Part shown: positions 6,163 through 34,532 of the stretch, piece by piece
Layout of the letters: each line of letters opens with the position of its first letter
Position numbering within the stretch: position 1 is the first letter of the stretch
From: an uncultured Lachnospiraceae bacterium
Lineage (GTDB): Bacteria > Bacillota > Clostridia > Lachnospirales > Lachnospiraceae
Assembly (NCBI GenBank): GCA_900316665.1
Contig: ONDV01000006.1
Span: 8,705-72,704, forward strand
DNA: 64,000 bases
Reading direction: 5' to 3'
Made by a program: the position numbers and the translations under genes
The notes under the pieces: generated by a model
Databases searched by the model: none
The model's input: the letters and a program-made list of their open reading frames with translations, nothing else
What the model was told of the DNA's origin: nothing

Positions 6163-7584
6163 ATGAAAAAAAAGATATTCTGGCTACTAGCCATATTAGT
6201 CATCATTGTATTTAATATTGTATGTTTTACTAGCCGACCTGACTGGTCTAAGGAAACATTGTCTCTTGCTGTAACATTAAAAGCAGACACAACAGAGAAT
6301 ACACAGATATTTTGTCTGAAAAAAAGTGAGTCGATGAATAATATCCAATACAATCCGAAAAATGCAAGTAAACTGGTTGCGTATACAGATACTTTCGGAA
6401 AGTATATGACCCTGAATTACGAAATCCCAGCGGATACCCGAGCAATCCGGTTCGATCCATCCCAAGCATTAAATCTTACTACGATTAAGAATATTAAGCT
6501 AAGATATAAGGGTAGAACCATTGTCGACTTTATGAAATCAAATATGGATATCATTGATAGTCAGCAGACCGATATTCAAAAGGATGATAAAACAATAAAG
6601 ATTCAGACAGAAGGCGGTGATGGATATATCACCTTCGCTGTACCTGTGTCTTATAGTGCCATTGTTGCAAAAGTGCAGTCTTATGGGGAAATGTCTGCGA
6701 GGTTGAAACGTCTTTTAGCAGCCCTTGCGGTAGACTTGCTTTTTGCCTTTGTTTTTTGGAAGAGAAAAAGTGTCTTTTCCATCCCACGTGATTTATGGCA
6801 GGAGAAACGCTTAGTTTGGAATCTGGGAAAAAATGATTTTAAGGCACGTTTTGCCGGTTCCTATCTTGGAATTGTCTGGGCATTTGTCCAGCCGATAGTA
6901 ACAGTTGTTGTTTACTGGTTTGTATTTCAGAAGGCATTGAATGTTGGTACTCAGTCTACCAAAGCAGGAATACAAGTTCCTTATGTTCTCTGGCTTGTGG
7001 CAGGTCTGGTTCCTTGGTTTTACTTTTCTGACGTTGTAACTAGTGGCACCAATGTCATTGTGGAATATAGTTATCTTGTAAAAAAAGTTGTATTTAAGAT
7101 CAGCTGCCTACCTGTAGTAAAAGCTATTTCTGCTTTATTTGTTCATATGTTTTTTTTGGCATTCATTCTGATTCTGTATGCTTGCTATGGGAACTTTCCG
7201 AATCCTTATATGCTCCAGATGTTGTATTATTCGTTTGCGATGATGGTGTTGGGTTTGGCAATTATCTATTTTACAAGTGCAATCACGGTATTTTTCAGAG
7301 ATACTTCACAGATTGTCAATATAATAATGCAGGTTATGGTTTGGTTTACTCCTATTATGTGGAATATTGATGGAATGACGCTTTCGGCGCCAGTTACATT
7401 TATTATGAAGCTAAATCCGATGTTTTATGTGATTCAGGGATACCGTGATGCCCTGATTAATCATGTTTGGTTCTGGAATCATGCCGGGCTCACCATATAT
7501 TTCTGGTGTATAACAGTCATTCTTTTGATATTTGGGGCATGGATTTTCAAGAGGTTGAGGGTTCACTTCGCAGATGTGTTATAA
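6163..7584 (+). CDS. wzm: Polysaccharide ABC exporter permease Wzm/RgpC with ~200-aa N-terminal extension
   Basis: NDFKARFAGSYLGIVWAFVQP, LNPMFYVIQGYRD, FADVL terminus; adjacent to wzt. Confidence 0.9.
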   Translation: MKKKIFWLLAILVIIVFNIVCFTSRPDWSKETLSLAVTLKADTTENTQIFCLKKSESMNNIQYNPKNASKLVAYTDTFGKYMTLNYEIPADTRAIRFDPSQALNLTTIKNIKLRYKGRTIVDFMKSNMDIIDSQQTDIQKDDKTIKIQTEGGDGYITFAVPVSYSAIVAKVQSYGEMSARLKRLLAALAVDLLFAFVFWKRKSVFSIPRDLWQEKRLVWNLGKNDFKARFAGSYLGIVWAFVQPIVTVVVYWFVFQKALNVGTQSTKAGIQVPYVLWLVAGLVPWFYFSDVVTSGTNVIVEYSYLVKKVVFKISCLPVVKAISALFVHMFFLAFILILYACYGNFPNPYMLQMLYYSFAMMVLGLAIIYFTSAITVFFRDTSQIVNIIMQVMVWFTPIMWNIDGMTLSAPVTFIMKLNPMFYVIQGYRDALINHVWFWNHAGLTIYFWCITVILLIFGAWIFKRLRVHFADVL

Positions 7585-23971: not shown

Positions 23972-24394
23972 ATGAAAGTCACTATAAAAGAATCGGATTT
24001 CGATAAGATATTGAGCCACGCGAGGAAGGAAGCTCCGATTGAGGCTTGCGGACTTATAGCGGGTCTGGATCATGACGGTGTAAGAGAAATAAAGAAGGTA
24101 TATATACTTACAAACATAGACCATACGTCAGAACATTTCTCTCTCGATCCGAAGGAGCAGCTTCAGGCTGTAAAAGATATGAGGGCGGAAGGATTAAAGC
24201 CACTCGGCAACTGGCACTCCCATCCCGCATCACCTTCAAGATCTTCGGCTGAAGATATAAGATTGTCATTTGATAGCAAGGCAAGTTATCTGATATTATC
24301 TCTTATGGACAATGACAACCCGGTTCTGAATTCCTTCCATGTCGAGGATGGTATATCCACTAAGGAAGAACTTCGGATAGTTTCTGATCAGTAA
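23972..24394 (+). CDS. JAB/MPN (M67) metallopeptidase
   Basis: EACGL and WHSHPASPSRSSAED JAMM motif. Confidence 0.92.
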   Translation: MKVTIKESDFDKILSHARKEAPIEACGLIAGLDHDGVREIKKVYILTNIDHTSEHFSLDPKEQLQAVKDMRAEGLKPLGNWHSHPASPSRSSAEDIRLSFDSKASYLILSLMDNDNPVLNSFHVEDGISTKEELRIVSDQ

Positions 24395-24421
24395 TGTAAA
24401 AGCTAACTAAGGAGGCTTTTT

Positions 24422-25285
24422 ATGGCAGTAGATTATGCGGCTCTGAAAAAGGGCGGATGGATGAGACAGAAGCAGAAAGGCAAATTCGCCCTGAGAGTAC
24501 ATGTTATCGGCGGAACTCTGACATCTGAGCAGCTTGAGGGAATACAGAAGGTAGCAAAGAAATACGGCAAGGGTTATGTCCATTTGACAGCCAGACAGTC
24601 GCTTGAGATTCCCTGGATGGACGAGAAAGACATAGAGGATATAAAAAAGGATCTGGCTGAGTACGGAGTATATCCTTCCGTCTGCGGCCCCAGAGTAAGG
24701 ACGACTACCGCCTGTCAGGGAAATGCTACCTGTCCGTCCGCCTGCATAGACACTCAGGATCTGGCAAAGAAGATTGACAAAAGATATTTCGCCAGAGAGC
24801 TGCCGGGTAAATTCAAATTTGGCGTTACGGGATGTCAGAATAACTGTCTTAAAACCGAGGAAAATGATATCGGCATCAAGGGAGCAGAGCGAGTGGAATG
24901 GCGTTCTGACAAATGCATCCAATGCGGAGTATGCGTGAAGGCATGCCGCGAAAACGCTCTTAAACTGGAAGACGGCAAGATCGTACTTGATAAAGACAAA
25001 TGCTCTTTCTGCGGACGCTGCGAGAAGTCGTGCCCTGTCGATGCCTGGGATGTATATCCGGGATATATTGTCTCGTGGGGCGGACTCTTCGGAAATCATA
25101 TTCACAGAGGAGAAAACATAGTGCCTTTCTTTGAGGGCGAGGACAAACTTTTCAAACTCTGCGACGCGACTATTGATTTCTTTGCCGCAAACGCTATAGC
25201 GGGAGACAGGCTGCAATTTGCCATAGACAGATACGGGCAGGACAGATTTAATGAGCTTATCAGAAAGGTTTACAACGAAGAATAA
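24422..25285 (+). CDS. Siroheme sulfite/nitrite reductase with 2x[4Fe-4S] ferredoxin domain (AsrC-like)
   Basis: LTARQ, ACQGNATC, KFKFGVTGCQNNC, CIQCGVCVKAC, CSFCGRCEKSCP. Confidence 0.88.
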   Translation: MAVDYAALKKGGWMRQKQKGKFALRVHVIGGTLTSEQLEGIQKVAKKYGKGYVHLTARQSLEIPWMDEKDIEDIKKDLAEYGVYPSVCGPRVRTTTACQGNATCPSACIDTQDLAKKIDKRYFARELPGKFKFGVTGCQNNCLKTEENDIGIKGAERVEWRSDKCIQCGVCVKACRENALKLEDGKIVLDKDKCSFCGRCEKSCPVDAWDVYPGYIVSWGGLFGNHIHRGENIVPFFEGEDKLFKLCDATIDFFAANAIAGDRLQFAIDRYGQDRFNELIRKVYNEE

Positions 25286-25328
25286 CCCGGGATATCTGTT
25301 CAGAAAGTTTTTAAAAGAGGAATAAAAT

Positions 25329-25577
25329 ATGGCTGAAGAATATAAGATCGACGAGACGGTAGACATCACATCGGTGGTTTGCCCGGTGACATTTGTAAAG
25401 ACGAAGGTAGCTCTGGAGGAACTGGATGACGGACAGATCCTCTCGGTTCACATGAATGACGGAGAACCCGTGCAGAATGTACCGAGGAGCGTAAAGGACG
25501 AGGGACATGAGATCTTAAAGCTCATTGATAATGAGGACGGGACCTATGACCTCATAGTAAGAAAAAGAGGAGAGTGA
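25329..25577 (+). CDS. TusA/SirA family sulfurtransferase
   Basis: DITSVVCPVTFVKTK (CPxP-like motif), 82 aa. Confidence 0.88.
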   Translation: MAEEYKIDETVDITSVVCPVTFVKTKVALEELDDGQILSVHMNDGEPVQNVPRSVKDEGHEILKLIDNEDGTYDLIVRKRGE

Positions 25578-25601
25578 AAATCCCAATAAGCACAGATTCA
25601 G

Positions 25602-25630
25602 ACCGGCAGCAGATGATGCTGCCGGTTTTG
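25602..25630 (+). terminator. Intrinsic terminator
   Basis: Perfect 10-bp stem ACCGGCAGCA-GATGA-TGCTGCCGGT followed by T residues. Confidence 0.8.
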
Positions 25631-25738
25631 TTATAAAAAAATATGGTAACCAGCGATTATAAGCAAGTATTAGCGGAGAAAGGCCTGTCACACTATAATT
25701 TTTCCTGTAATAAGTAAATGTAACCGCCATTCATTGAT

Positions 25739-27175
25739 ATGGAAGTCGCAGACGTAAGAATTAATGATGTGAATTCAAGGGAATATGATATGGATCAGGC
25801 AGAGATGAATTTGACAGGAAAAAATAAGACATACGCTAAAGTCCGCGCTAAGAGAAATTCTCTGATACTTACAATGCTGAAGATCGGTTTGACCGGATTC
25901 GGCGGAGGAAGCGCGCTCATTCCGGTAATCGAGGAGGAAGTGGTTGACAATCAAAAAATCATTTCGCGCGATGAATATAGTGAAGCCGTGGTTTCAGCCT
26001 GCGTCACCCCCGGAGCCCTGCCGGTAGAAATAGCTGCCGGGGTCGGGAATAAGAAGGCAGGAATAAAGGGAATGCTTCTTTCAGCTGTTTCCATGGCTCT
26101 GCCGGGAGCATTTCTGACTGTGCTTATTCTGTCAGCAGTTGCCAGATCAGAAGGTACCATTCTTTCTGTGATCAGATATATTTCGATAGGGATAGGCGGA
26201 TTCATCACATCCCTCCTTCTATCCTATGCGATAAAGACTGCTGAGGAAGCCAGATACGATAAAAAGAATTTTATCTTTTCCATCCTTGTCATGGCCTTGG
26301 TCTTTTTCCTGACCGGAGGCAGGACTGTACTCAGTCTGCCAGGCATTAAAAATGCGGACAAGATGATCCGCCTTTCGACTTTTCAGATACTTGCATTATC
26401 CTTCGCAGTAATGATTATCATTTATTTTATTCGCTATGTTAAAGACCGTCTGACTTCAAAAGAAGCAAATAAAAAAACAAAGGTTTCTTCTGCCGGAAAT
26501 ATAGTCTTCCGAAAATCCGTGACAACGATTGTGAAAGAAACGGCTGTATGGCTTGTATTTGCTTTTCTCCTGTCAATCCCGGCTCTTCTAATGATAGGAA
26601 ACGGACCTGTGTTTGCCGGCAGAGGTTTTTTATCATCTCTTATGTCGTTCGGAGGCGGAGACGCATATCTCTCTGTAGCAGATGGCCTTTTCGTAAATAC
26701 CGGAATGATTCCGGGAGACGATTTCTATGGACTTCTGGTTCCTGCGGCGAATGTCCTGCCGGGCTCCATCCTTTGCAAGATCCTGACCGGCAGCGGATAC
26801 ATGATCGGATCATCACACGGCACGGCAGCAGGAATAGCCGGCGCCCTTTCAGGATTTGCGATCAGCGTATCGGCTTCCGGAATGGTGTTCGGCATAGTTT
26901 TCTGGATTTTCCGTACTTTCAGAAATGTATCTTTTCTTCGCATGGTGAGCAGCTGCATAAGACCGATAATAAGCGGTCTGCTTCTTGGAGTAGCTGTTAC
27001 AATGCTTAAGACATCAGCTTCCGCGGCCCTTTCTCTAGGTAAAAACAGCGTTGCCGCGCTTATTCTCACAGCAGCTATAGCAGCCTTTGATATGCTTCTT
27101 TCATTTAGAAAGACAGACAATACCTGGCTCCTCATCGGCTCCGCAGCTGCCGGAGGACTCCTTATATTTTTTTAA
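25739..27175 (+). CDS. Long-chain CHR (ChrA) family oxyanion transporter
   Basis: Two repeats: GFGGG..TPG and SFGGG..LPGSI; true start may be ATG 25790. Confidence 0.85.
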   Translation: MEVADVRINDVNSREYDMDQAEMNLTGKNKTYAKVRAKRNSLILTMLKIGLTGFGGGSALIPVIEEEVVDNQKIISRDEYSEAVVSACVTPGALPVEIAAGVGNKKAGIKGMLLSAVSMALPGAFLTVLILSAVARSEGTILSVIRYISIGIGGFITSLLLSYAIKTAEEARYDKKNFIFSILVMALVFFLTGGRTVLSLPGIKNADKMIRLSTFQILALSFAVMIIIYFIRYVKDRLTSKEANKKTKVSSAGNIVFRKSVTTIVKETAVWLVFAFLLSIPALLMIGNGPVFAGRGFLSSLMSFGGGDAYLSVADGLFVNTGMIPGDDFYGLLVPAANVLPGSILCKILTGSGYMIGSSHGTAAGIAGALSGFAISVSASGMVFGIVFWIFRTFRNVSFLRMVSSCIRPIISGLLLGVAVTMLKTSASAALSLGKNSVAALILTAAIAAFDMLLSFRKTDNTWLLIGSAAAGGLLIFF

Positions 27176-27188
27176 GAAGGAATATATT

Positions 27189-27235
27189 AAGAACCGCTAA
27201 AAGCCTTTAAAAGGACTTTCGGCGGTTCTTTCTTT
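27189..27235 (+). terminator. Intrinsic terminator after CHR gene
   Basis: AAGAACCGC...GCGGTTCTT stem followed by TCTTT. Confidence 0.8.
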
Positions 27236-27331
27236 GATTTGTCGCTTGTTTCTCGCTTAAATCTGCTAAACGATATGGGACGATAGCAGACGAATTAACC
27301 GACTGCTTACACGAAATGTATGTGAGATGTA

Positions 27332-27361
27332 TTGGATTTGTTATGCACTCTATGCTATAAT
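27332..27361 (+). promoter_or_regulatory. Extended -10 promoter for the RHH/R-M operon
   Basis: TGcTATAAT at 27353-27361; weak -35 TTGGAT; GGAGGT RBS downstream. Confidence 0.6.
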
Positions 27362-27381
27362 ACTATATCGGAGGTGGACAT

Positions 27382-27564
27382 ATGGAAAACAAAAGTGTAT
27401 CAATGTGTATTCGTGTAAGTCAAGAAGAATTACAGCGGCTAAAACAGGCGGCAAGATTAGAAAAGTATTCTTCATATAGTGAGTTTGTCAGACGCACCGC
27501 ACTACTTGAAGCTGATAACGTGATTAAAAACAATGACAGCGAAAATGTAAAGGAGAACAGATGA
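27382..27564 (+). CDS. Ribbon-helix-helix (DUF1778-like) DNA-binding protein
   Basis: SVSMCIRVS strand followed by [10 protein letters not shown] and [10 protein letters not shown] helices; GGAGGT RBS; ATGA overlap with the MTase. Confidence 0.7.
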
Positions 27565-29585
27565 ATTTAATCAGTTTATTCAGCGGTTGCGGCGGTCTTG
27601 ATTTGGGCTTTGAAAAAGCCGGATTCAATATTCCTGTAGCAAACGAATTTGATAAAACGATTTGGCCAACATTCAAGGCTAATCACCCTAACACGCACCT
27701 TATTGAAGGCGATGTGCGAAATATTAACAAAGCCGATATTGCAGAATATCTTAACGGTGAAGTAGATGGCATTATTGGCGGCCCGCCTTGTCAGTCATGG
27801 TCAGAAGCCGGATCGCTAAAAGGCATAAATGATGAACGCGGTCAGCTTTTCTTTGACTATATCCGGATTTTGAAAGAATTCAAGCCTAAGTTCTTTCTTG
27901 CTGAAAATGTCAGCGGTATGCTTGCCGATAGACATTCCGATGCGGTAAGAAACATTCTTGATATGTTTGAAGATGCCGGTTATACAGTTACTTTCACAAT
28001 GGTAAATGCCAAGGATTACGGTGTTGCAGAAGAAAGAAAGCGTGTTTTCTATATTGGTTTCAGAAAAGATTTGAATATTGATTTTCAATTTCCTAAAGGC
28101 TCTACAACGGACGACAAAAAGAAACTTACATTAAAAGACGTCATTTGGGATTTGCAGGATACAGCCGTGCCGTCAGGGGATAAAAACCACCATAACCCGG
28201 CTGCCATAAACAACAACGAATATTTTACAGGCGCATTTTCGCCTATATTCATGAGTCGTAACCGCGTTAAGAGTTGGGACGAACAAGCTTTCACGGTTCA
28301 AGCTTCAGGGCGCCAATGTCAGCTGCACCCGCAAGCCCCGAAAATGTTGAAAGTAGGCAAGAACGATTGTCGTTTCGTACCGGGGCAAGAAAGCTTGTAT
28401 CGCCGAATGACGATAAGAGAAATTGCAAGAATTCAAGGATTTCCGGATGATTTTGTATTCCTTTATGACGATACTAATACGGCATATAAAATGATTGGAA
28501 ACGCTGTTCCTGTAAATTTAGCTTACGAAATAGCCGTTGCAATCAAAAAGGACCTTGAAGGACGTCAGGATGAAGTTGTACCGGCAGAAAACAGTATCGA
28601 CGCAAAGGAGATGAACAGAGTTAAAATGAGTACAAGAAGCAATGACCAGGGACGTGCTTATGAATACGCATGGATTAAAACCCTGTACAAGGCACTCCAC
28701 GAATTACGGAAAACGCGAATTCTGAATAATTCAAGCTATATAGCGAATGAAAAGGCATGGAATTCTATTGATTCCGATTTGCGGGAAACCTATATTATTT
28801 CTGCTAATGCCGCCGTTGACACCGTTCTTGAATTGGAACCGAAAATGACGGAACCCGGTGATGATGAACTTACGCTTGAATTTCAGAAAGACGACGCCGG
28901 GAAACGCGGGGACGTGCGCGACATTCTTATAAAGCGCGATAACGCGCAATGGGAAATTGGATTAAGTATCAAGCATAATCATGACGCCGCAAAGCATAGC
29001 CGTTTAAGCCATAAGCTTGATTTTGGTAAGGAATGGTATGGACAGTCCTGTGACAGCACTTATTGGGACGCAATCAAGCCTGTTTTTGACCGTTTGTCTG
29101 TCGAAAAGGAAAACGGCACGAAATGGTCTGAAATCCCGGATAAGGATGACAGCGTTTATTATCCGCTGTTAGACGCATTCATGCATGAAGTACAGCGGGC
29201 TTATGAAAATGACAGTAACTTGCCGCAAAAGATGATTGAATATCTTATCGGTATTGAAGATTATTATAAGATAGTAAGTCACGATAGTCAGCGTTTAACG
29301 CTTATTCATACTTTCAATATTCATGATACTTTGAATAAGCCCAGCACAATAAAAGTATCCGCAATTACTGTTCCTGTCGTTTCACTCCCGACAGAATTGA
29401 TTGCTATAAAGCATAAGACGGGCAGCAAAAACACAGTAGAAGCATATTTTAACAACGGATGGCAGTTAAGCTTCAGGATTCACAACGCTTCAACAAAGGT
29501 TGAACCCAGTCTGAAATTTGACATTCAGTTTATCGGAATGCCGGTAAGTATTCTTAACATTGAATGCCATTGGAACAAGCAGTAA
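27561..29585 (+). CDS. Fused HaeIII-like DNA (cytosine-5)-methyltransferase and HaeIII-family restriction endonuclease
   Basis: m5C motifs FSGCGG, GPPCQ, ENV, RKRVF, GNAVP and the target-recognition segment IFMSRNRV...[16 protein letters not shown], as recalled for M.HaeIII; from aa ~356, SNDQGRAYE...GDVRD...EIGLSIKH (endonuclease). Confidence 0.85.
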
Positions 29586-29617
29586 AAACTCAAAAGAAAT
29601 TTTTGGTAAATTTTTAC

Positions 29618-29646
29618 GGTGGACGTTTAAGCGTCTGCCGTTTTTC
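29618..29646 (+). terminator. Probable terminator after R-M fusion
   Basis: GGTGGACG-TTTAAG-CGTCTGCC stem (with G-U pairs) followed by GTTTTT. Confidence 0.65.
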
Positions 29647-29774
29647 ATTTCTGCCGCTTGCTGAAATGCGGGATTTTTCTGATATAGGTATTTATGATAT
29701 CAGGCAATTAAATGCAAGTATTAGCATATAGCATCTGATTATTCTATACTCTGTCTGAAACGAGAGGAAATGAT

Positions 29775-31655
29775 ATGGCAAACACACATATAGAAGTCAG
29801 AAAATATCATACCGATGTCCTGATAATAGGCGGCGGGACAGCAGGCTGTTACGCAGCGGCGCTTCTTGGAGAAAAGACAGACCTTAAAGTCCTGATTGCA
29901 GAGAAGGCGGGGATCATGAGAAGCGGCTGTCTGGCTGCTGGAGTGAACGCATTGAACTGCTATATAACCGATGGTCACACGCCGGATGATTATGTGGAAT
30001 ATTCGAGGCAGGACGGAGAGGGCATAATCAGAGACGACCTCGTGAGATCATTCGCTGAAAGGGTAAATGACATTACTCATGACCTGGAGAAGCGAGGCCT
30101 TGTGATCTTAAAGGACGAGAACGGAAACTATGCGACAAGAGGCTGGCGGAATATAAAAATAAATGGAGAAAACATTAAGCCAATCCTCGCAAAAGCTGCG
30201 CTTGAGTCAGAAAATGTATCGGTTCTCGAACATGTAAATATTACTGATCTGAAGATATCGGACGGAAACGGGAATATTGCAGCAGGAGCGGATCTGAATG
30301 CATCGGCGGAAGATGATATAGAAGTAACCGGAGCTGTAGGCTTCTCAGTCCGTGAGAACGTGGCTTTTGATATTGACGCAAAAGCAGTGCTGATAGCGAC
30401 CGGCGGAGCGGCAGGTCTCTACCGGCCGAATAATCCGGGATTTTCACGGCATAAGATGTGGTATCCGCCATTTAATACCGGAGCCGGATATGCCATGGGA
30501 ATAATGTCCGGAGCTGAAATGACTACCATGGAAGACAGGTTCGTGGCGCTTCGCTGCAAGGACACAATAGCTCCGACAGGAACCATAGCCCAGGGAGTGA
30601 ATGCTTCTCAGGTCAATTCCAATGGCGAGGTCTATGATGACAGATACGGACGAAAGACTGCCGACAGAATATACGGTACCGTACAGGAGAACAGAGCCGG
30701 AAGAGGTCCATGCTTCCTGAAGACAAGCGGTATTTCTAAAGCAATAGAAGACGATCTCTATAAGGCCTATCTCAACATGGCGCCGTCGCAGACACTTCGC
30801 TGGATAGAATCCGGTCAGGGACCGTCTGCAATAGATACGGAGATAGAAGGAACCGAGCCCTATGTGACAGGCGGTCATACGGCCGGAGGCTTCTGGGTGG
30901 ACAGCGGCAGAAGGACTACCGTAAAGAATCTCTACGCAGCCGGTGATGTGGCAGGAGGCGCTCCTCAGAAATATGTGACCGGAGCTCTTGCCGAAGGAGA
31001 GATAGCCGCAGAAAGCATAATTAATGATCTTAAGGTATCGGATCTAAGAGAAAGTGAGACATCAGCTGATGCCATAATAAAGTCATATGAAGCATTCCTT
31101 AATAATAATGATTCTTTTATCTCAATCGACGAAGCTGAAGAGGCAATGCAGAAAATTATGGATGAATATGCGGGCGGTATCAGGAATGATTATCAATATA
31201 ATGAGAAGGGACTTTCTATTGCAGAGAACAAAATCAGAAAGCTGATGGAGATGCTTCCTTCCCTGAAAGCGGATGATATGTTTGACCTGCTTCATATTTT
31301 TGAAATAAAAGACAGGCTCTGGGTCTGTCTGGACCTGATTTATCACATGAGAGCAAGGAAAGAGACAAGGTGGCATATATTCGGAGAGAATGCGAGCCAT
31401 CCTAAGAGGGACAGGAGATACGATTTATATGTCAATTCCATTTTGAGGAATGGAAAGATAGAGATAATATTCAGACCTCTTGTAAAGTCGGATTCTTATT
31501 CTCATACCAAGGCGACTTCCATAGCTGATCCTGAATCCGTAGAGCCGGCGAGAGGTGAATCCGGAGAACCGGAATTATATCCAAAAGAAAAAAGTGAAGC
31601 CAGAGATTTGAAAGAAGATATAAAAGCCGGAGCGATGAAAGGAGGCAGGTCTTGA
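29775..31655 (+). CDS. aprA: Adenylylsulfate (APS) reductase alpha subunit-like flavoprotein
   Basis: IIGGGTAG FAD motif, RSGCLAAGVNALN, INGENIKP, ATGGAAG, WYPPFNTGAG; upstream of ferredoxin and cysDN. Confidence 0.88.
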   Translation: MANTHIEVRKYHTDVLIIGGGTAGCYAAALLGEKTDLKVLIAEKAGIMRSGCLAAGVNALNCYITDGHTPDDYVEYSRQDGEGIIRDDLVRSFAERVNDITHDLEKRGLVILKDENGNYATRGWRNIKINGENIKPILAKAALESENVSVLEHVNITDLKISDGNGNIAAGADLNASAEDDIEVTGAVGFSVRENVAFDIDAKAVLIATGGAAGLYRPNNPGFSRHKMWYPPFNTGAGYAMGIMSGAEMTTMEDRFVALRCKDTIAPTGTIAQGVNASQVNSNGEVYDDRYGRKTADRIYGTVQENRAGRGPCFLKTSGISKAIEDDLYKAYLNMAPSQTLRWIESGQGPSAIDTEIEGTEPYVTGGHTAGGFWVDSGRRTTVKNLYAAGDVAGGAPQKYVTGALAEGEIAAESIINDLKVSDLRESETSADAIIKSYEAFLNNNDSFISIDEAEEAMQKIMDEYAGGIRNDYQYNEKGLSIAENKIRKLMEMLPSLKADDMFDLLHIFEIKDRLWVCLDLIYHMRARKETRWHIFGENASHPKRDRRYDLYVNSILRNGKIEIIFRPLVKSDSYSHTKATSIADPESVEPARGESGEPELYPKEKSEARDLKEDIKAGAMKGGRS

Positions 31656-31960
31656 GCATAACAATAGACAGATCGATCTGCATATCCTGTATGAGATGCG
31701 CCGATGCCTGTCCCGGGAATCTGATATGGAAAAAAGACGGGAAAGCTGATATCAGAATTCCATCAGACTGCTGGGGATGTACATCCTGCATGAAGGTATG
31801 CCCGGCGGGAGCAATCAGATTTCGGCTGGGAGCTGATATAGGCGGAACAGGAGCTTATATGACTTATAAGAAAGAAGGCCATACGGGCAGATGGACAGTT
31901 TTTAACAAGGGCTCGTCCGAGACCATAGAAGTTGATGACAGAAGTTCCAATAAATATTAG
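31652..31960 (+). CDS. aprB: APS reductase beta subunit-like 2x[4Fe-4S] ferredoxin
   Basis: CISCMRCADACP and CWGCTSCMKVCP; TTG start after GGAGG. Confidence 0.85.
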   Translation: MSITIDRSICISCMRCADACPGNLIWKKDGKADIRIPSDCWGCTSCMKVCPAGAIRFRLGADIGGTGAYMTYKKEGHTGRWTVFNKGSSETIEVDDRSSNKY

Positions 31961-31972
31961 AGAGGGATCAAA

Positions 31973-32881
31973 ATGAGTCAGTTATCACATCTTGATAAGC
32001 TGGAAGCGGAGGCTATATATATTATCCGCGAGGTGGCGGCTGAATGCGAGAAGCCGGTCATGCTTTATTCCATAGGAAAGGACAGCACGGTTATGCTGCA
32101 TCTGGCACTTAAGGCCTTTTATCCTGAAAAGCCGCCTTTCCCTTTTCTCCATGTCAATACGACATGGAAGTTTCACGAAATGATAGAATTCCGTGATGCC
32201 CAGGCGAAAAAGTACGGTATCAATATGATCGAGTGGATCAATCAGGACGGAGTCAAGGCAGGCATTAATCCTTTTGACAATGGCGCTGCATATACGGATA
32301 TCATGAAGACTCAGGCTCTGAAACAGGCGCTGGCAACGTATGGTTTTACCGCAGCGTTCGGCGGCGGCAGAAGGGACGAAGAAAAGAGCCGTGCCAAGGA
32401 AAGAATTTTTTCATTCAGAAATTCCGCCCAGGCCTGGGATCCGAAAAATCAGCGGCCAGAGATGTGGAAACTTTATAATACCAGAATCAATAAAGGCGAA
32501 AGCATCCGTGTCTTCCCTCTGTCCAACTGGACCGAGAAGGACATATGGCAGTACATTCAGCGCGAGAATCTGGAGATAGTATCCCTCTATTACGCAAAGG
32601 AACGCCCCTGCATAGAGCGTGACGGCAACATCATTATGGTAGATGACGACAGGATAGTAAAGAAGCTGGATCTAAAGCCGTCGGACATACAGCATAAAAA
32701 AATCAGATTCAGAACGCTCGGCTGCTATCCTCTGACAGGAGGATTTGAATCCGACGCAGATACATTGGATTCCATAGTGGAAGAGACGCTTGGAGCTGTA
32801 GAATCCGAGAGAACCAGCCGTGTCATCGATCATGACGGCTCGGCCAGCATGGAGAGACGTAAGAGAGAGGGGTATTTCTAA
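31973..32881 (+). CDS. cysD: Sulfate adenylyltransferase subunit 2
   Basis: [40 protein letters not shown], terminal REGYF. Confidence 0.97.
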
Positions 32882-32882
32882 G

Positions 32883-34532
32883 ATGAGCGGACTTTTAAAA
32901 TTTATTACATGCGGAAGTGTGGATGACGGTAAGTCAACTCTCATCGGACATCTGCTTTATGACGCAAAGCTTATATATGCGGATCAGGAAGAAGCGCTCC
33001 AGCTCGATTCCAAGGTCGGTTCCAGAGGCGGAAAGATCGACTATTCCCTGCTATTAGACGGGCTGATGGCTGAGAGAGAGCAGGGCATTACTATAGACGT
33101 GGCCTACAGATATTTTACGACTGATAAAAGAAGTTTCATCTGCGCTGACACCCCGGGTCATGAGGAATACACAAGAAATATGGCCTGCGGCGCATCGTTC
33201 GCTGAGCTTGCGATCATCCTTCTTGACGCGACAAAGGGTGTCCTGGTCCAGACCAGACGGCATGCAAGGATCTGCGCTTTGATGGGAATCAGATATTTTG
33301 TATTTGCTGTAAATAAGATGGATCTCGTGGATTATTCCGGGGAGAGATTCAAGGAGATCGAGCAAGAGATCAACGAGCTTAAAAAGGAACTTGACCTTTA
33401 TAATATTCAGATCATTCCTGTATCCGCTACCGAGGGCGACAATATCACAAAACGCTCTGACAAGATGGACTGGTACAGAGGACCTGTCCTTCTCGATTAT
33501 CTGGAGACAGTGGACACGGGATCAGGCAATGAATCCGGACAGGGATTTTATATGCCGGTACAGAGAGTCTGCCGTCCCAATCATGAATTCCGAGGATTCG
33601 AAGGTCAGATTGAACACGGTCAGATCAAGACCGGTGACAGCATAAGATCTCTTCCCAGCGGTGAAGAGGCTCATGTAAAGAGCATACTTGTCGCAGATCG
33701 TGAAAGTGATTCGGCAGTATCCGGTCAGCCTGTCACTATTCAGCTCGACCGTGAAGTGGATGTATCGAGGGGCTGCGTGCTTGAATCAGGCACGAGTCTT
33801 AAGACAGCTGATCTGTTTGAGACAGAGATTCTCTGGATGGATGACGATGAGCTGAAGGTCGGGAGAAATTTCCTTGTGAAACTGGCGACTAGGCTGATTC
33901 CCGGAATCGTGACAGAAATCGAGTATTCGATCGATGTAAATACCGGCGAAAGGAAGAAGACAGACACGCTTAAGAAAAATGAGATCGCCATGGTAAAGGT
34001 GGCTGTTACAGAGCAGGTGATAGCATCTGTATTCGGCGAATACAATACCATGGGTGAACTTATTCTTATCGACAGAATATCCAATATGACATCAGCCTGC
34101 GGAGTCATAAGGAAACTTCTGGACAATAAGAAAAAATCTGTGAAAGCTGATGTGGCGTCAAGAAGCGCTCTTAACTGGCAGACACCTGCTGTAATTGAAT
34201 TTGATCCTGCAGAGGATAATACCGATATTGACACGATAGCAGAAGCTGAATATCTTCTGGTGAGAAACGGCAGACATACATATCTCTACAGACCGCATGC
34301 CGGCGAGGATTATGTGACTACTGTACACCACCTTTATAACGCGGGACTTATAGTTCTTCTGGTTCTGGATGACGGAGTAAGGGCAAGCGACTCTCTCATT
34401 AATGATGAGCACTATAAGACATGGAGCTCTATCTGTGATGGAAGTGCTGTGTCGGCAGAAGAAATTTATGCTAAGATATTCCATATGACTCCCTCTGGAA
34501 TGACCATCGATAATAATAACTGGGTCATCTGA
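32883..34532 (+). CDS. cysN: Sulfate adenylyltransferase subunit 1 (GTPase) with degenerate CysC-like tail
   Basis: CGSVDDGKST, EREQGITID, DTPGH, NKMD; ATG 32883 directly follows the cysD stop. Confidence 0.95.
   Translation: MSGLLKFITCGSVDDGKSTLIGHLLYDAKLIYADQEEALQLDSKVGSRGGKIDYSLLLDGLMAEREQGITIDVAYRYFTTDKRSFICADTPGHEEYTRNMACGASFAELAIILLDATKGVLVQTRRHARICALMGIRYFVFAVNKMDLVDYSGERFKEIEQEINELKKELDLYNIQIIPVSATEGDNITKRSDKMDWYRGPVLLDYLETVDTGSGNESGQGFYMPVQRVCRPNHEFRGFEGQIEHGQIKTGDSIRSLPSGEEAHVKSILVADRESDSAVSGQPVTIQLDREVDVSRGCVLESGTSLKTADLFETEILWMDDDELKVGRNFLVKLATRLIPGIVTEIEYSIDVNTGERKKTDTLKKNEIAMVKVAVTEQVIASVFGEYNTMGELILIDRISNMTSACGVIRKLLDNKKKSVKADVASRSALNWQTPAVIEFDPAEDNTDIDTIAEAEYLLVRNGRHTYLYRPHAGEDYVTTVHHLYNAGLIVLLVLDDGVRASDSLINDEHYKTWSSICDGSAVSAEEIYAKIFHMTPSGMTIDNNNWVI

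Follow-up and report, generated by a model that had tools for sequence, protein, structure and literature searches.

In textbook Type IIP restriction-modification (R-M) systems, the nuclease (R) and the methylase (M) are separate proteins. The described systems closest to the locus reported here, HaeIII of Haemophilus aegyptius and the Cthe_2320/2321 pair of Clostridium thermocellum, combine a DNA methyltransferase (MTase) of the M.HaeIII type (PF00145) with a nuclease of the PF09556 family, made as two proteins from genes in head-to-tail, M-then-R order, and the split C. thermocellum pair accompanies 100% 5-methylcytosine (m5C) at GGCC, as read by bisulfite sequencing (PMC6791906). In a 64-kb window of contig ONDV01000006.1, the whole stretch of DNA analysed, from an uncultured Lachnospiraceae bacterium, we find the same two families in the same order, with the same predicted GGCC target and m5C protection, joined here in one chain through the tail of the MTase. 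Compared with HaeIII, the window system adds a gene for a small ribbon-helix-helix (RHH) protein and an insertion cassette that carries both genes. We consider it probable, with good confidence, that the locus encodes a natural single-chain GGCC R-M enzyme which, together with the small RHH regulator gene, resides on a mobile cassette of 2.4 kb.

Joining a Type IIP nuclease and a cytosine-5 (C5) MTase has a precedent in the engineered RM.Eco29kI fusion, which retained ~80% of the MTase and about one third of the nuclease activity, and whose authors listed HaeIII among head-to-tail systems that might have natural fused derivatives (Mokrishcheva et al., 2011; PMC3039593). As in RM.Eco29kI, each partner in the window protein has its own recognition; that construct is artificial, R-then-M in order and derived from unrelated nuclease and MTase lineages, whereas the window fusion is natural, M-then-R and widespread and, unlike the construct, appears to keep an internal start. 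Endonuclease and methyltransferase also share one polypeptide in the known Type IIC/IIG enzymes (MmeI, Eco57I, BpuSI, BcgI and BtgZI). Type IIC proteins have been described, in the main review of Type II enzymes from 2014, as fusions with gamma-class (in BtgZI, alpha-class) amino-methyltransferases that cut at a distance, with no mention of a cytosine-5 case (PMC4081073), and they usually have one shared specificity module, an N-terminal nuclease, distant cutting and a response to S-adenosylmethionine (AdoMet). By contrast, the window protein has an N-terminal C5-MTase and a self-sufficient Type IIP-family nuclease, cleavage presumably occurring within GGCC. It is Type IIC by the definition of the nomenclature (PMC4081073) and differs from Type IIG, or MmeI/Eco57I-like, enzymes in the class and N-terminal position of its MTase and in having a complete nuclease that also exists as a stand-alone protein. 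NgoPII of Neisseria gonorrhoeae shares the target but not the nuclease: the gonococcal MTase, 77.5% identical to the window's MTase half, can be assigned to this GGCC system because its gene lies directly downstream of one for an RE_NgoPII-family nuclease, a separate protein unrelated to that in the window, and HaeIII, NgoPII and BsuRI have been cited as convergent enzymes (PMC4081073). We found no description in the literature of a natural fusion of a C5-MTase and a Type IIP nuclease; both families are thoroughly known, the fused proteins already bear an automatic annotation, such a fusion was predicted in 2011, and no new chemistry is implied.

The initial annotation, made from the sequence, had described a complete MTase joined in frame to a complete HaeIII-family nuclease, and this was borne out by open reading frame (ORF) listing and by Pfam and NCBIfam profile searches of the proteins of the window. 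The single open frame of 674 aa (Table 1) matches DNA_methylase (PF00145) over aa 1–330 (E = 4e-100; profile positions 1–324 of 324) and RE_HaeIII (PF09556) over aa 364–661 (E = 9.7e-135; positions 1–298 of 298), both profiles being covered at full length, and NCBIfam TIGR00675 agrees on the methylase half. The linker (aa 335–355), the AAGGAG motif at 28605–28610, the in-frame ATGs at 28611 and 28626 and the segment GDVRD...EIGLSIK all lie where that annotation had placed them.

Presented at first as an unusual find, the fusion turned out to be abundant in gut Bacillota and already in public databases under an automatic name. Among 5.8 billion proteins searched, full-length homologues formed at least 120 clusters (667–690 aa, both domains, 74–78% identity), some of them representing thousands of sequences and named automatically by NCBI as 'HaeIII family restriction endonuclease'. 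Species-representative genomes yielded 315 relatives, the fused genes among them coming from Lachnospiraceae, Oscillospiraceae, Christensenellaceae and others. The fusion is present in dozens of Bacillota genomes, and cultured carriers include [Lactobacillus] rogosae CLA-AA-H255, Agathobacter sp. LCP21S3_B2, Eubacterium sp. and Mediterraneibacter glycyrrhizinilyticus (complete genome). In an exhaustive search with the nuclease half, the nuclease family at 50% clustering was overwhelmingly stand-alone (~310–330 aa). Besides a close fused cluster (P0121) there is a distant, independent M-R fusion (P0197; 37% identity). In plasmid and phage collections no fused copy was found; two plasmids carry split M and R genes, and the phage matches cover the MTase half only, at ≤35.5% identity. 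Other architectures of the HaeIII nuclease family include a nuclease with a Peptidase_S24 domain (P0145; 483 aa), a Type I S-subunit domain with a partial nuclease that is possibly chimeric (P0122) and an 879-aa protein whose N-terminal 560 aa have no domain assignment (P0234).

How the two genes became one was examined in a junction survey of 80 loci at the nucleotide level, 38 of them fused and 21 split, both states being present in every sub-clade. In the window's clade, where the linker reads ...IDAKEVNEKK(V/M)STKSND, the split locus L059 is nested among fused ones, a one-base difference giving a GTGA stop/start overlap. A second linker type is found in the fused loci L020, L021, L025 and L027, accompanied by split members whose stop and start overlap as ATGA in a different frame, and with a third type the split state consists of one in-frame stop directly before the nuclease ATG, which is lost in the fused L032, L036/37 and L042. 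The split loci L059, L060, L068, L069, L072 and L077 share a linker-like MTase tail, and their MTase stop overlaps the nuclease start or, in L077, directly precedes it. Because the same tail and stop/start junction occur in split relatives, the linker is the former C-terminal tail of the methylase and not a translated spacer. Its length varies from almost nothing to ~70 residues (L028), a range that argues for independence of the two domains. A neighbour-joining tree requires at least six transitions between the fused and split states, and M-then-R operons in tight coupling have given rise to the fusion some six times or more, the routes being a one-base indel or loss of a stop codon. The longest linker, in M. 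glycyrrhizinilyticus f23 (L028; ~7017–7222), is ~70 aa long and rich in Lys, Ala and Thr, compared with the usual ~20 aa; at the position where the nuclease ancestrally began, that locus has no start codon.

In many stand-alone homologues, the first residue is precisely the one that aligns with Met356, where the nuclease domain begins as it was originally delimited, and ATG 28626 is therefore the ancestral nuclease start. In a codon analysis of 39 fused ORFs, the codon at this position is ATG in 15, GTG in 20, TTG in one, CTG in two and GCG in one, and among the 48 columns that contain 15 or more valines no other restricts itself to a single Val codon (GTG, 20/20), the remaining Val-rich columns using three or four, with GTG at 5–36%. 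Just upstream, Glu350 ranks first of 45 Glu columns for GAG and Lys349 second of 51 Lys columns for AAG, and occurrences of GGAGG cluster at the position of the AAGGAG, while the neighbouring synonymous positions at Ala348, Val351 and Asn352 vary freely. Furthermore, nine fusions fall outside the linker clade of the window, and in five of them (L027, L032, L036/37, L042 and L056) GGAG lies 6–9 nt before an ATG or TTG. Since synonymous sites are saturated in these genes, conservation of the start codon and of AAGGAG points to selection at the nucleotide level and not to inheritance, and we lean, on balance, towards translation of a free nuclease as well, by internal initiation at 28626. The initial annotation had proposed that both a fusion and a free nuclease are made from the one ORF, with ATG 28611 as a further possible start; the part of this that concerns ATG 28626 and AAGGAG is supported by their conservation, and ATG 28611 is not a credible start, as it abuts AAGGAG directly, is specific to the window and is replaced in homologues mostly by GTN (Val) or GAY (Asp). 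Also rejected was a dnaX-like programmed frameshift at the A-rich run that precedes the junction in some relatives, which would release free MTase: the junction TGA is in frame +1 and not in frame −1, no slow codon occupies the zero-frame A site, and the window has no A-run.

The alternative that best withstands these data is that the fusion protein is the sole product, the internal ATG or GTG and the AAGGAG being retained for another reason, such as frequent reversion to the split state, which requires these signals, a role at the mRNA level or an importance of the linker residues to the protein. That the state toggles, as seen from the nested split L059 and the repeated transitions, would suit this alternative. 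Several further points weigh against our reading of the locus as a single-chain enzyme with a second, free product, and the first three of them also speak for the fusion as sole product. Throughout the window's clade, the Shine-Dalgarno (SD)-like motif stands 14–15 nt from the start, outside the usual optimum and poor for initiation; the spacing of 15 nt in the window is long, and internal initiation, if any, is therefore probably weak. The RTG-A of the junction also conserves a TGA in the +1 frame, so that a start codon is not the sole explanation of its conservation, and three intact fusions (L015, L019 and L028) have CTG, GCG or GGG at the ancestral start. Elongating ribosomes would interfere, so that there may be very little internal initiation or none; metatranscriptome contigs do span the gene, with DNA carry-over possible and no 5' ends defined. 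As to the enzyme itself, both activities are predicted from sequence for every fused member, and a full-length AlphaFold model built with 46 close homologues was poor (predicted local distance difference test score, pLDDT, 67.5; <50 in the target recognition domain [TRD] and the nuclease core, dropping to 47–66 in the linker), for which reason we make no claim about interdomain contacts. Finally, the RHH gene is absent from about half of the fused loci, which makes it an optional regulator and not integral to the fusion. Nonetheless, selection has no foresight, and saturated synonymous sites combined with exclusive use of GTG and the strongest AAG/GAG bias indicate a present function at the nucleotide level, next to positions that are free to vary; moreover, the five independently derived fusions that keep GGAG and ATG or TTG do so at good spacing. 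We therefore regard the fusion as sole product as possible but rather unlikely.

Loss of nuclease activity is a frequent fate of R-M systems, and the gene might act as a solitary methyltransferase with an inactive or decaying C-terminal appendage; some database relatives (P0174 and L053) are indeed truncated or frameshifted in the nuclease half. In the window, however, the nuclease matches its Pfam family over the full length, and the acidic and Lys residues that had been noted as intact-looking are so: the residues invariant in 73 diverse family members (G9, E13, E71, D96, D99, W137, G209, L236, W279 and P306, in domain numbering) are all present, as are the nearly invariant S114 and K116, which correspond to S469 and K471. 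In full-length numbering, the conserved set includes E368, E426, D451, D454, S469 and K471. Across the fused clade, the ratio of nonsynonymous to synonymous substitution rates (dN/dS) is ~0.04 in the M half and ~0.07 in the R half, and synonymous sites are saturated (median dS ~2); these values speak for strong purifying selection on both halves, and seven of the ten population variants in the R half are synonymous. Depletion of GGCC in the window (see below) also fits ongoing restriction or m5C pressure. Low dN/dS, mostly synonymous variants and retention of the invariant residues thus argue against decay, and we consider a dead nuclease very unlikely.

The putative active-site segment, G-D451-V-R-D454...W-E465-I-G-L-S469-I-K471, has the pattern D-X17-S-X-K, a variant of PD-(D/E)XK, and catalytic roles are predicted for D451, D454, S469 and K471, which lie on strand elements of the model. 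When the nuclease domain alone was modelled by AlphaFold with a diverse alignment, the pLDDT was 96.9 and the predicted template modelling (TM) score 0.92. A Foldseek comparison of this model with the Protein Data Bank (PDB) gave a sole meaningful match, to the PD-(D/E)XK enzyme HinP1I; the match was weak (E = 7.8e-3, probability 0.90, TM 0.37/0.45) and is consistent with the D-X17-S-X-K variant, so that a PD-(D/E)XK-type fold may tentatively be proposed. No solved-structure relative of the C-terminal half was found in a PDB search, and a 2008 classification had left the HaeIII cluster without assignment (PMC2441816). The domain would be expected to cleave GG^CC, with m5C blocking the cut.

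In the MTase half, the conserved C5-MTase motifs are complete, the AdoMet motif FxGxG and the catalytic Pro-Cys among them (PF00145, TIGR00675 and alignment with 1dct): motif I reads FSGCGG, the catalytic Cys77 (27789–27791) lies in GGPPCQ, and AENV and GNAVPV are present. The N-terminal half aligns end to end with crystallised M.HaeIII (1dct; E = 1e-132, 64% identity). The variable region that separates motifs VIII and IX is 61.5% identical and its recognition core 76%; motif VIII is EERKR, invariant across the window's clade, compared with QDRKR in M.HaeIII. None of the other 15 palindromic tetramers is depleted in the window as strongly as GGCC, which occurs 79 times where a maximal-order Markov model predicts 183 (ratio 0.43). 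The GGCC specificity initially proposed from similarity in the target-recognition region is upheld by the high identity to the MTases of two GGCC systems, which extends through the recognition region, and by this depletion, and GGCC can be regarded as the well-supported target; protection should be by methylation of the inner cytosine, GGm5CC. A different recognition sequence might be entertained because the TRD is 61–76% and not 100% identical to that of M.HaeIII, specificity being predicted from such likeness. Yet the likeness to M.HaeIII and to the MTase of the gonococcal NgoPII locus runs through the variable region, the nuclease is in the HaeIII family, GGCC is specifically depleted and the split C. 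thermocellum relative methylates GGCC, making another target most improbable. CTAG (observed/expected 0.53) and ACGT (0.64) are likewise under-represented in the window and CCGG is over-represented (1.18). The codons of the catalytic GGPPCQ themselves contain a GGCC site (27780–27783; ggcGGCCcgccttgt), one of only two in the cassette.

That the ORF is an assembly or sequencing artefact masking a stop or frameshift between two ordinary genes, as the single base that separates close split systems from fused ones at the junction might suggest, can be dismissed as next to impossible, given that contigs from four independent metagenome runs cover it (one identical, three ~99% identical) with substitutions only, no indels, no stop and positions 28560–28630 unchanged, and that the many protein clusters and isolate genomes share the same architecture. 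The fused ORF is thereby confirmed as genuine, and the stop near 28560 for which the initial annotation had suggested a check of the reads is absent from these contigs. Across the ORF, population variants occur at 16 positions, 13 of them synonymous and none creating a stop; every run bearing the ORF comes from a gut or bovine-gut metagenome.

In runs X31 (depth 55.8) and X26, contigs join 27184 directly to 29612, omitting the 2,427 bases of the cassette. Because of this empty-site joint, the cassette is an insertion present in some members of the population only, and the RHH and M-R unit is a presence/absence polymorphism within it. It lies between the stop of an upstream chromate-transporter-family gene and that gene's original terminator. 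This terminator adjoins 27184 where the cassette is absent and, with the cassette in place, comes after the M-R ORF as well; a hairpin at the 5' end of the cassette, just past the stop of the upstream gene (27175), probably terminates that gene now. Divergence between strains in run X17 was ~0.7% in the cassette vs 2.7–6% in the flanking genes, and in run X13 the cassette continues into a different upstream sequence from ~27301. Inspection of its interior and ends revealed no recombinase gene and no evident target-site duplication.

The first cassette gene encodes the 60-aa RHH protein (Pfam: TacA1, 1.8e-6; NikA-like, 5.6e-6; RHH_1, 0.014; no match to a helix-turn-helix [HTH] family), has a well-spaced GGAGG (27370–27374) 7 nt before its ATG and is preceded by a candidate promoter, read by eye from the sequence and not reported by a consensus scan. 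Orthologues occupy the same position in ~17 related loci (60–69% identity; only 35% in L001); in other sub-clades, an Xre-type HTH protein, an NgoPII-type nuclease, a ~200-aa protein or nothing is found upstream of the MTase. The RHH protein probably autorepresses, or otherwise autoregulates, the operon. The arrangement resembles the C-protein operons of PvuII, Esp1396I and Csp231I, in which the gene for a small DNA-binding protein likewise leads and overlaps the next gene, but there an HTH C protein precedes the R gene alone, whereas here an RHH protein precedes the fused M-R gene. Split systems L046–L049 have a classical Xre/HTH_26 protein at the regulator position, and HTH controllers occur only in sub-clades other than the window's. 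No C-box was identified, and the window system falls outside the C-protein-regulated class. To our knowledge, known R-M controller proteins are HTH proteins, and we found no RHH-type R-M controller described in the literature. A search for a shared operator was negative, in that the RHH promoter region of the window does not align at TGTTCGTGCAACAAAGTATTGACA, the element common to the other RHH-bearing loci, where it forms an inverted repeat next to the −35 region. In runs X13, X25 and X28, a 12-nt insertion (TACACGAAATGG) at 27307–27319, a short way ahead of the candidate promoter, is almost a copy of the neighbouring TACACGAAATGT and may be a variable repeat in the region bound by the regulator.

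Table 1. Coordinates of the fused gene, its parts and the surrounding cassette features in the 64-kb window.
Feature	Position	Strand	Description and basis
Fused M-R ORF	27561–29585	+	single open frame, 674 aa, ATG start
C5-MTase domain, M.HaeIII/M.NgoPII-like	27561–28559	+	aa 1–333; PF00145, TIGR00675, 1dct, TRD identity
Linker, 22 aa	28560–28625	+	aa 334–355; homologous to MTase C-terminal tail of split relatives
HaeIII-family restriction endonuclease domain	28626–29582	+	aa 356–674; PF09556 full profile
AAGGAG, SD-like motif	28605–28610	+	15 nt upstream of ATG 28626
In-frame ATG (Met356), candidate internal initiation site	28626–28628	+	aligned with starts of stand-alone homologues
Putative nuclease active-site segment	28911–28973	+	conservation in 73 family members
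R-M cassette, insertion polymorphism	27185–29611	.	2,427 bp; empty-site contigs
Hairpin at cassette 5' end	27189–27230	+	repeat search; 20-nt arms, 80% complementary, followed by T-rich run
Candidate promoter	27332–27361	+	−35 TTGGAT (27332–27337), 18-nt spacer, TGc-TATAAT extended −10 (27353–27361)
RHH protein gene, 60 aa	27382–27564	+	first cassette gene; stop overlaps MTase start (ATGA)
Intrinsic terminator	29616–29641	+	terminator scan; 11-pair stem and T-run; outside cassette

The cassette interrupts a sulfur-assimilation neighbourhood (23972–34532) with genes for a JAB-domain protein, a sulfite/nitrite reductase-type protein, TusA and the chromate-transporter-family protein on its upstream side and for a FAD-binding (fumarate reductase/AprA-like) protein and a small ferredoxin-like ORF on its downstream side; further ORFs there resemble CysD and CysN on visual inspection of their sequences. 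Among related loci, a gene for an RE_NgoPII-family nuclease immediately precedes that of the M.HaeIII-like MTase in L020 (5353–5985) and L065 (5366–5983); as the L020 MTase is in addition fused to a nuclease of the HaeIII family, a single methylase there would be shared by two unrelated GGCC nucleases. In several other loci, the gene immediately upstream of the MTase encodes a ~200-aa protein with no Pfam match and the motif ...GAITLGWKFEL.NKPGGDLSG... (MTase-only loci L063, 5375–5992, L064, L071 and L079; fused L022/L023, 966–1568), which could represent a further, undescribed family of GGCC nucleases.

These observations can be combined into a model in which the N-terminal M.HaeIII/M.NgoPII-type domain would protect host DNA as GGm5CC, the C-terminal HaeIII-family, PD-(D/E)XK-like domain would cut unmethylated GGCC, and each would bring its own DNA-recognition elements, tethered through the old C-terminal tail of the methyltransferase. 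The fusion would result when an M-then-R operon whose stop and start codons overlap or adjoin loses the stop or gains a one-base indel, as has happened repeatedly in Bacillota. With its gene translated first and running into the MTase start, the RHH protein would most likely autoregulate the operon; read-through translation would then give the ~77-kDa fusion with M:R fixed at 1:1, and weak internal initiation at the retained start would add a small amount of free nuclease (~37 kDa). As a bolder and, in our view, doubtful extension, the gene could be seen as having two outputs, in that no MTase would be made without an attached nuclease and weak internal initiation would add a tunable supply of free nuclease, toggling between the fused and split states then serving as an evolutionary switch. 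If so, one-base toggling would reset the M:R ratio, and tying together the half-lives of R and M would change the addictiveness of the cassette, that is, its post-segregational lethality.

What makes the locus of interest is the absence of any published characterisation that we could find, the repeated origin of the fusion by one mutation and the nucleotide-level support for retention of an internal start. Natural, widespread and under selection, such a fusion of a C5-methylase and a Type IIP-family nuclease, whose methylase half is concealed by the automatic name, would bear out the 2011 prediction, and it shows that an ordinary two-gene system can become a single-chain enzyme through one mutation and has done this many times. 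Fused and split relatives that are one base apart would provide a natural test bed for the influence of gene architecture on M:R stoichiometry, on establishment in a new host and on post-segregational killing. Moreover, fused genes are very common in the Lachnospiraceae of human and animal guts, and GGCC restriction is likely to hinder the genetic manipulation of these bacteria.

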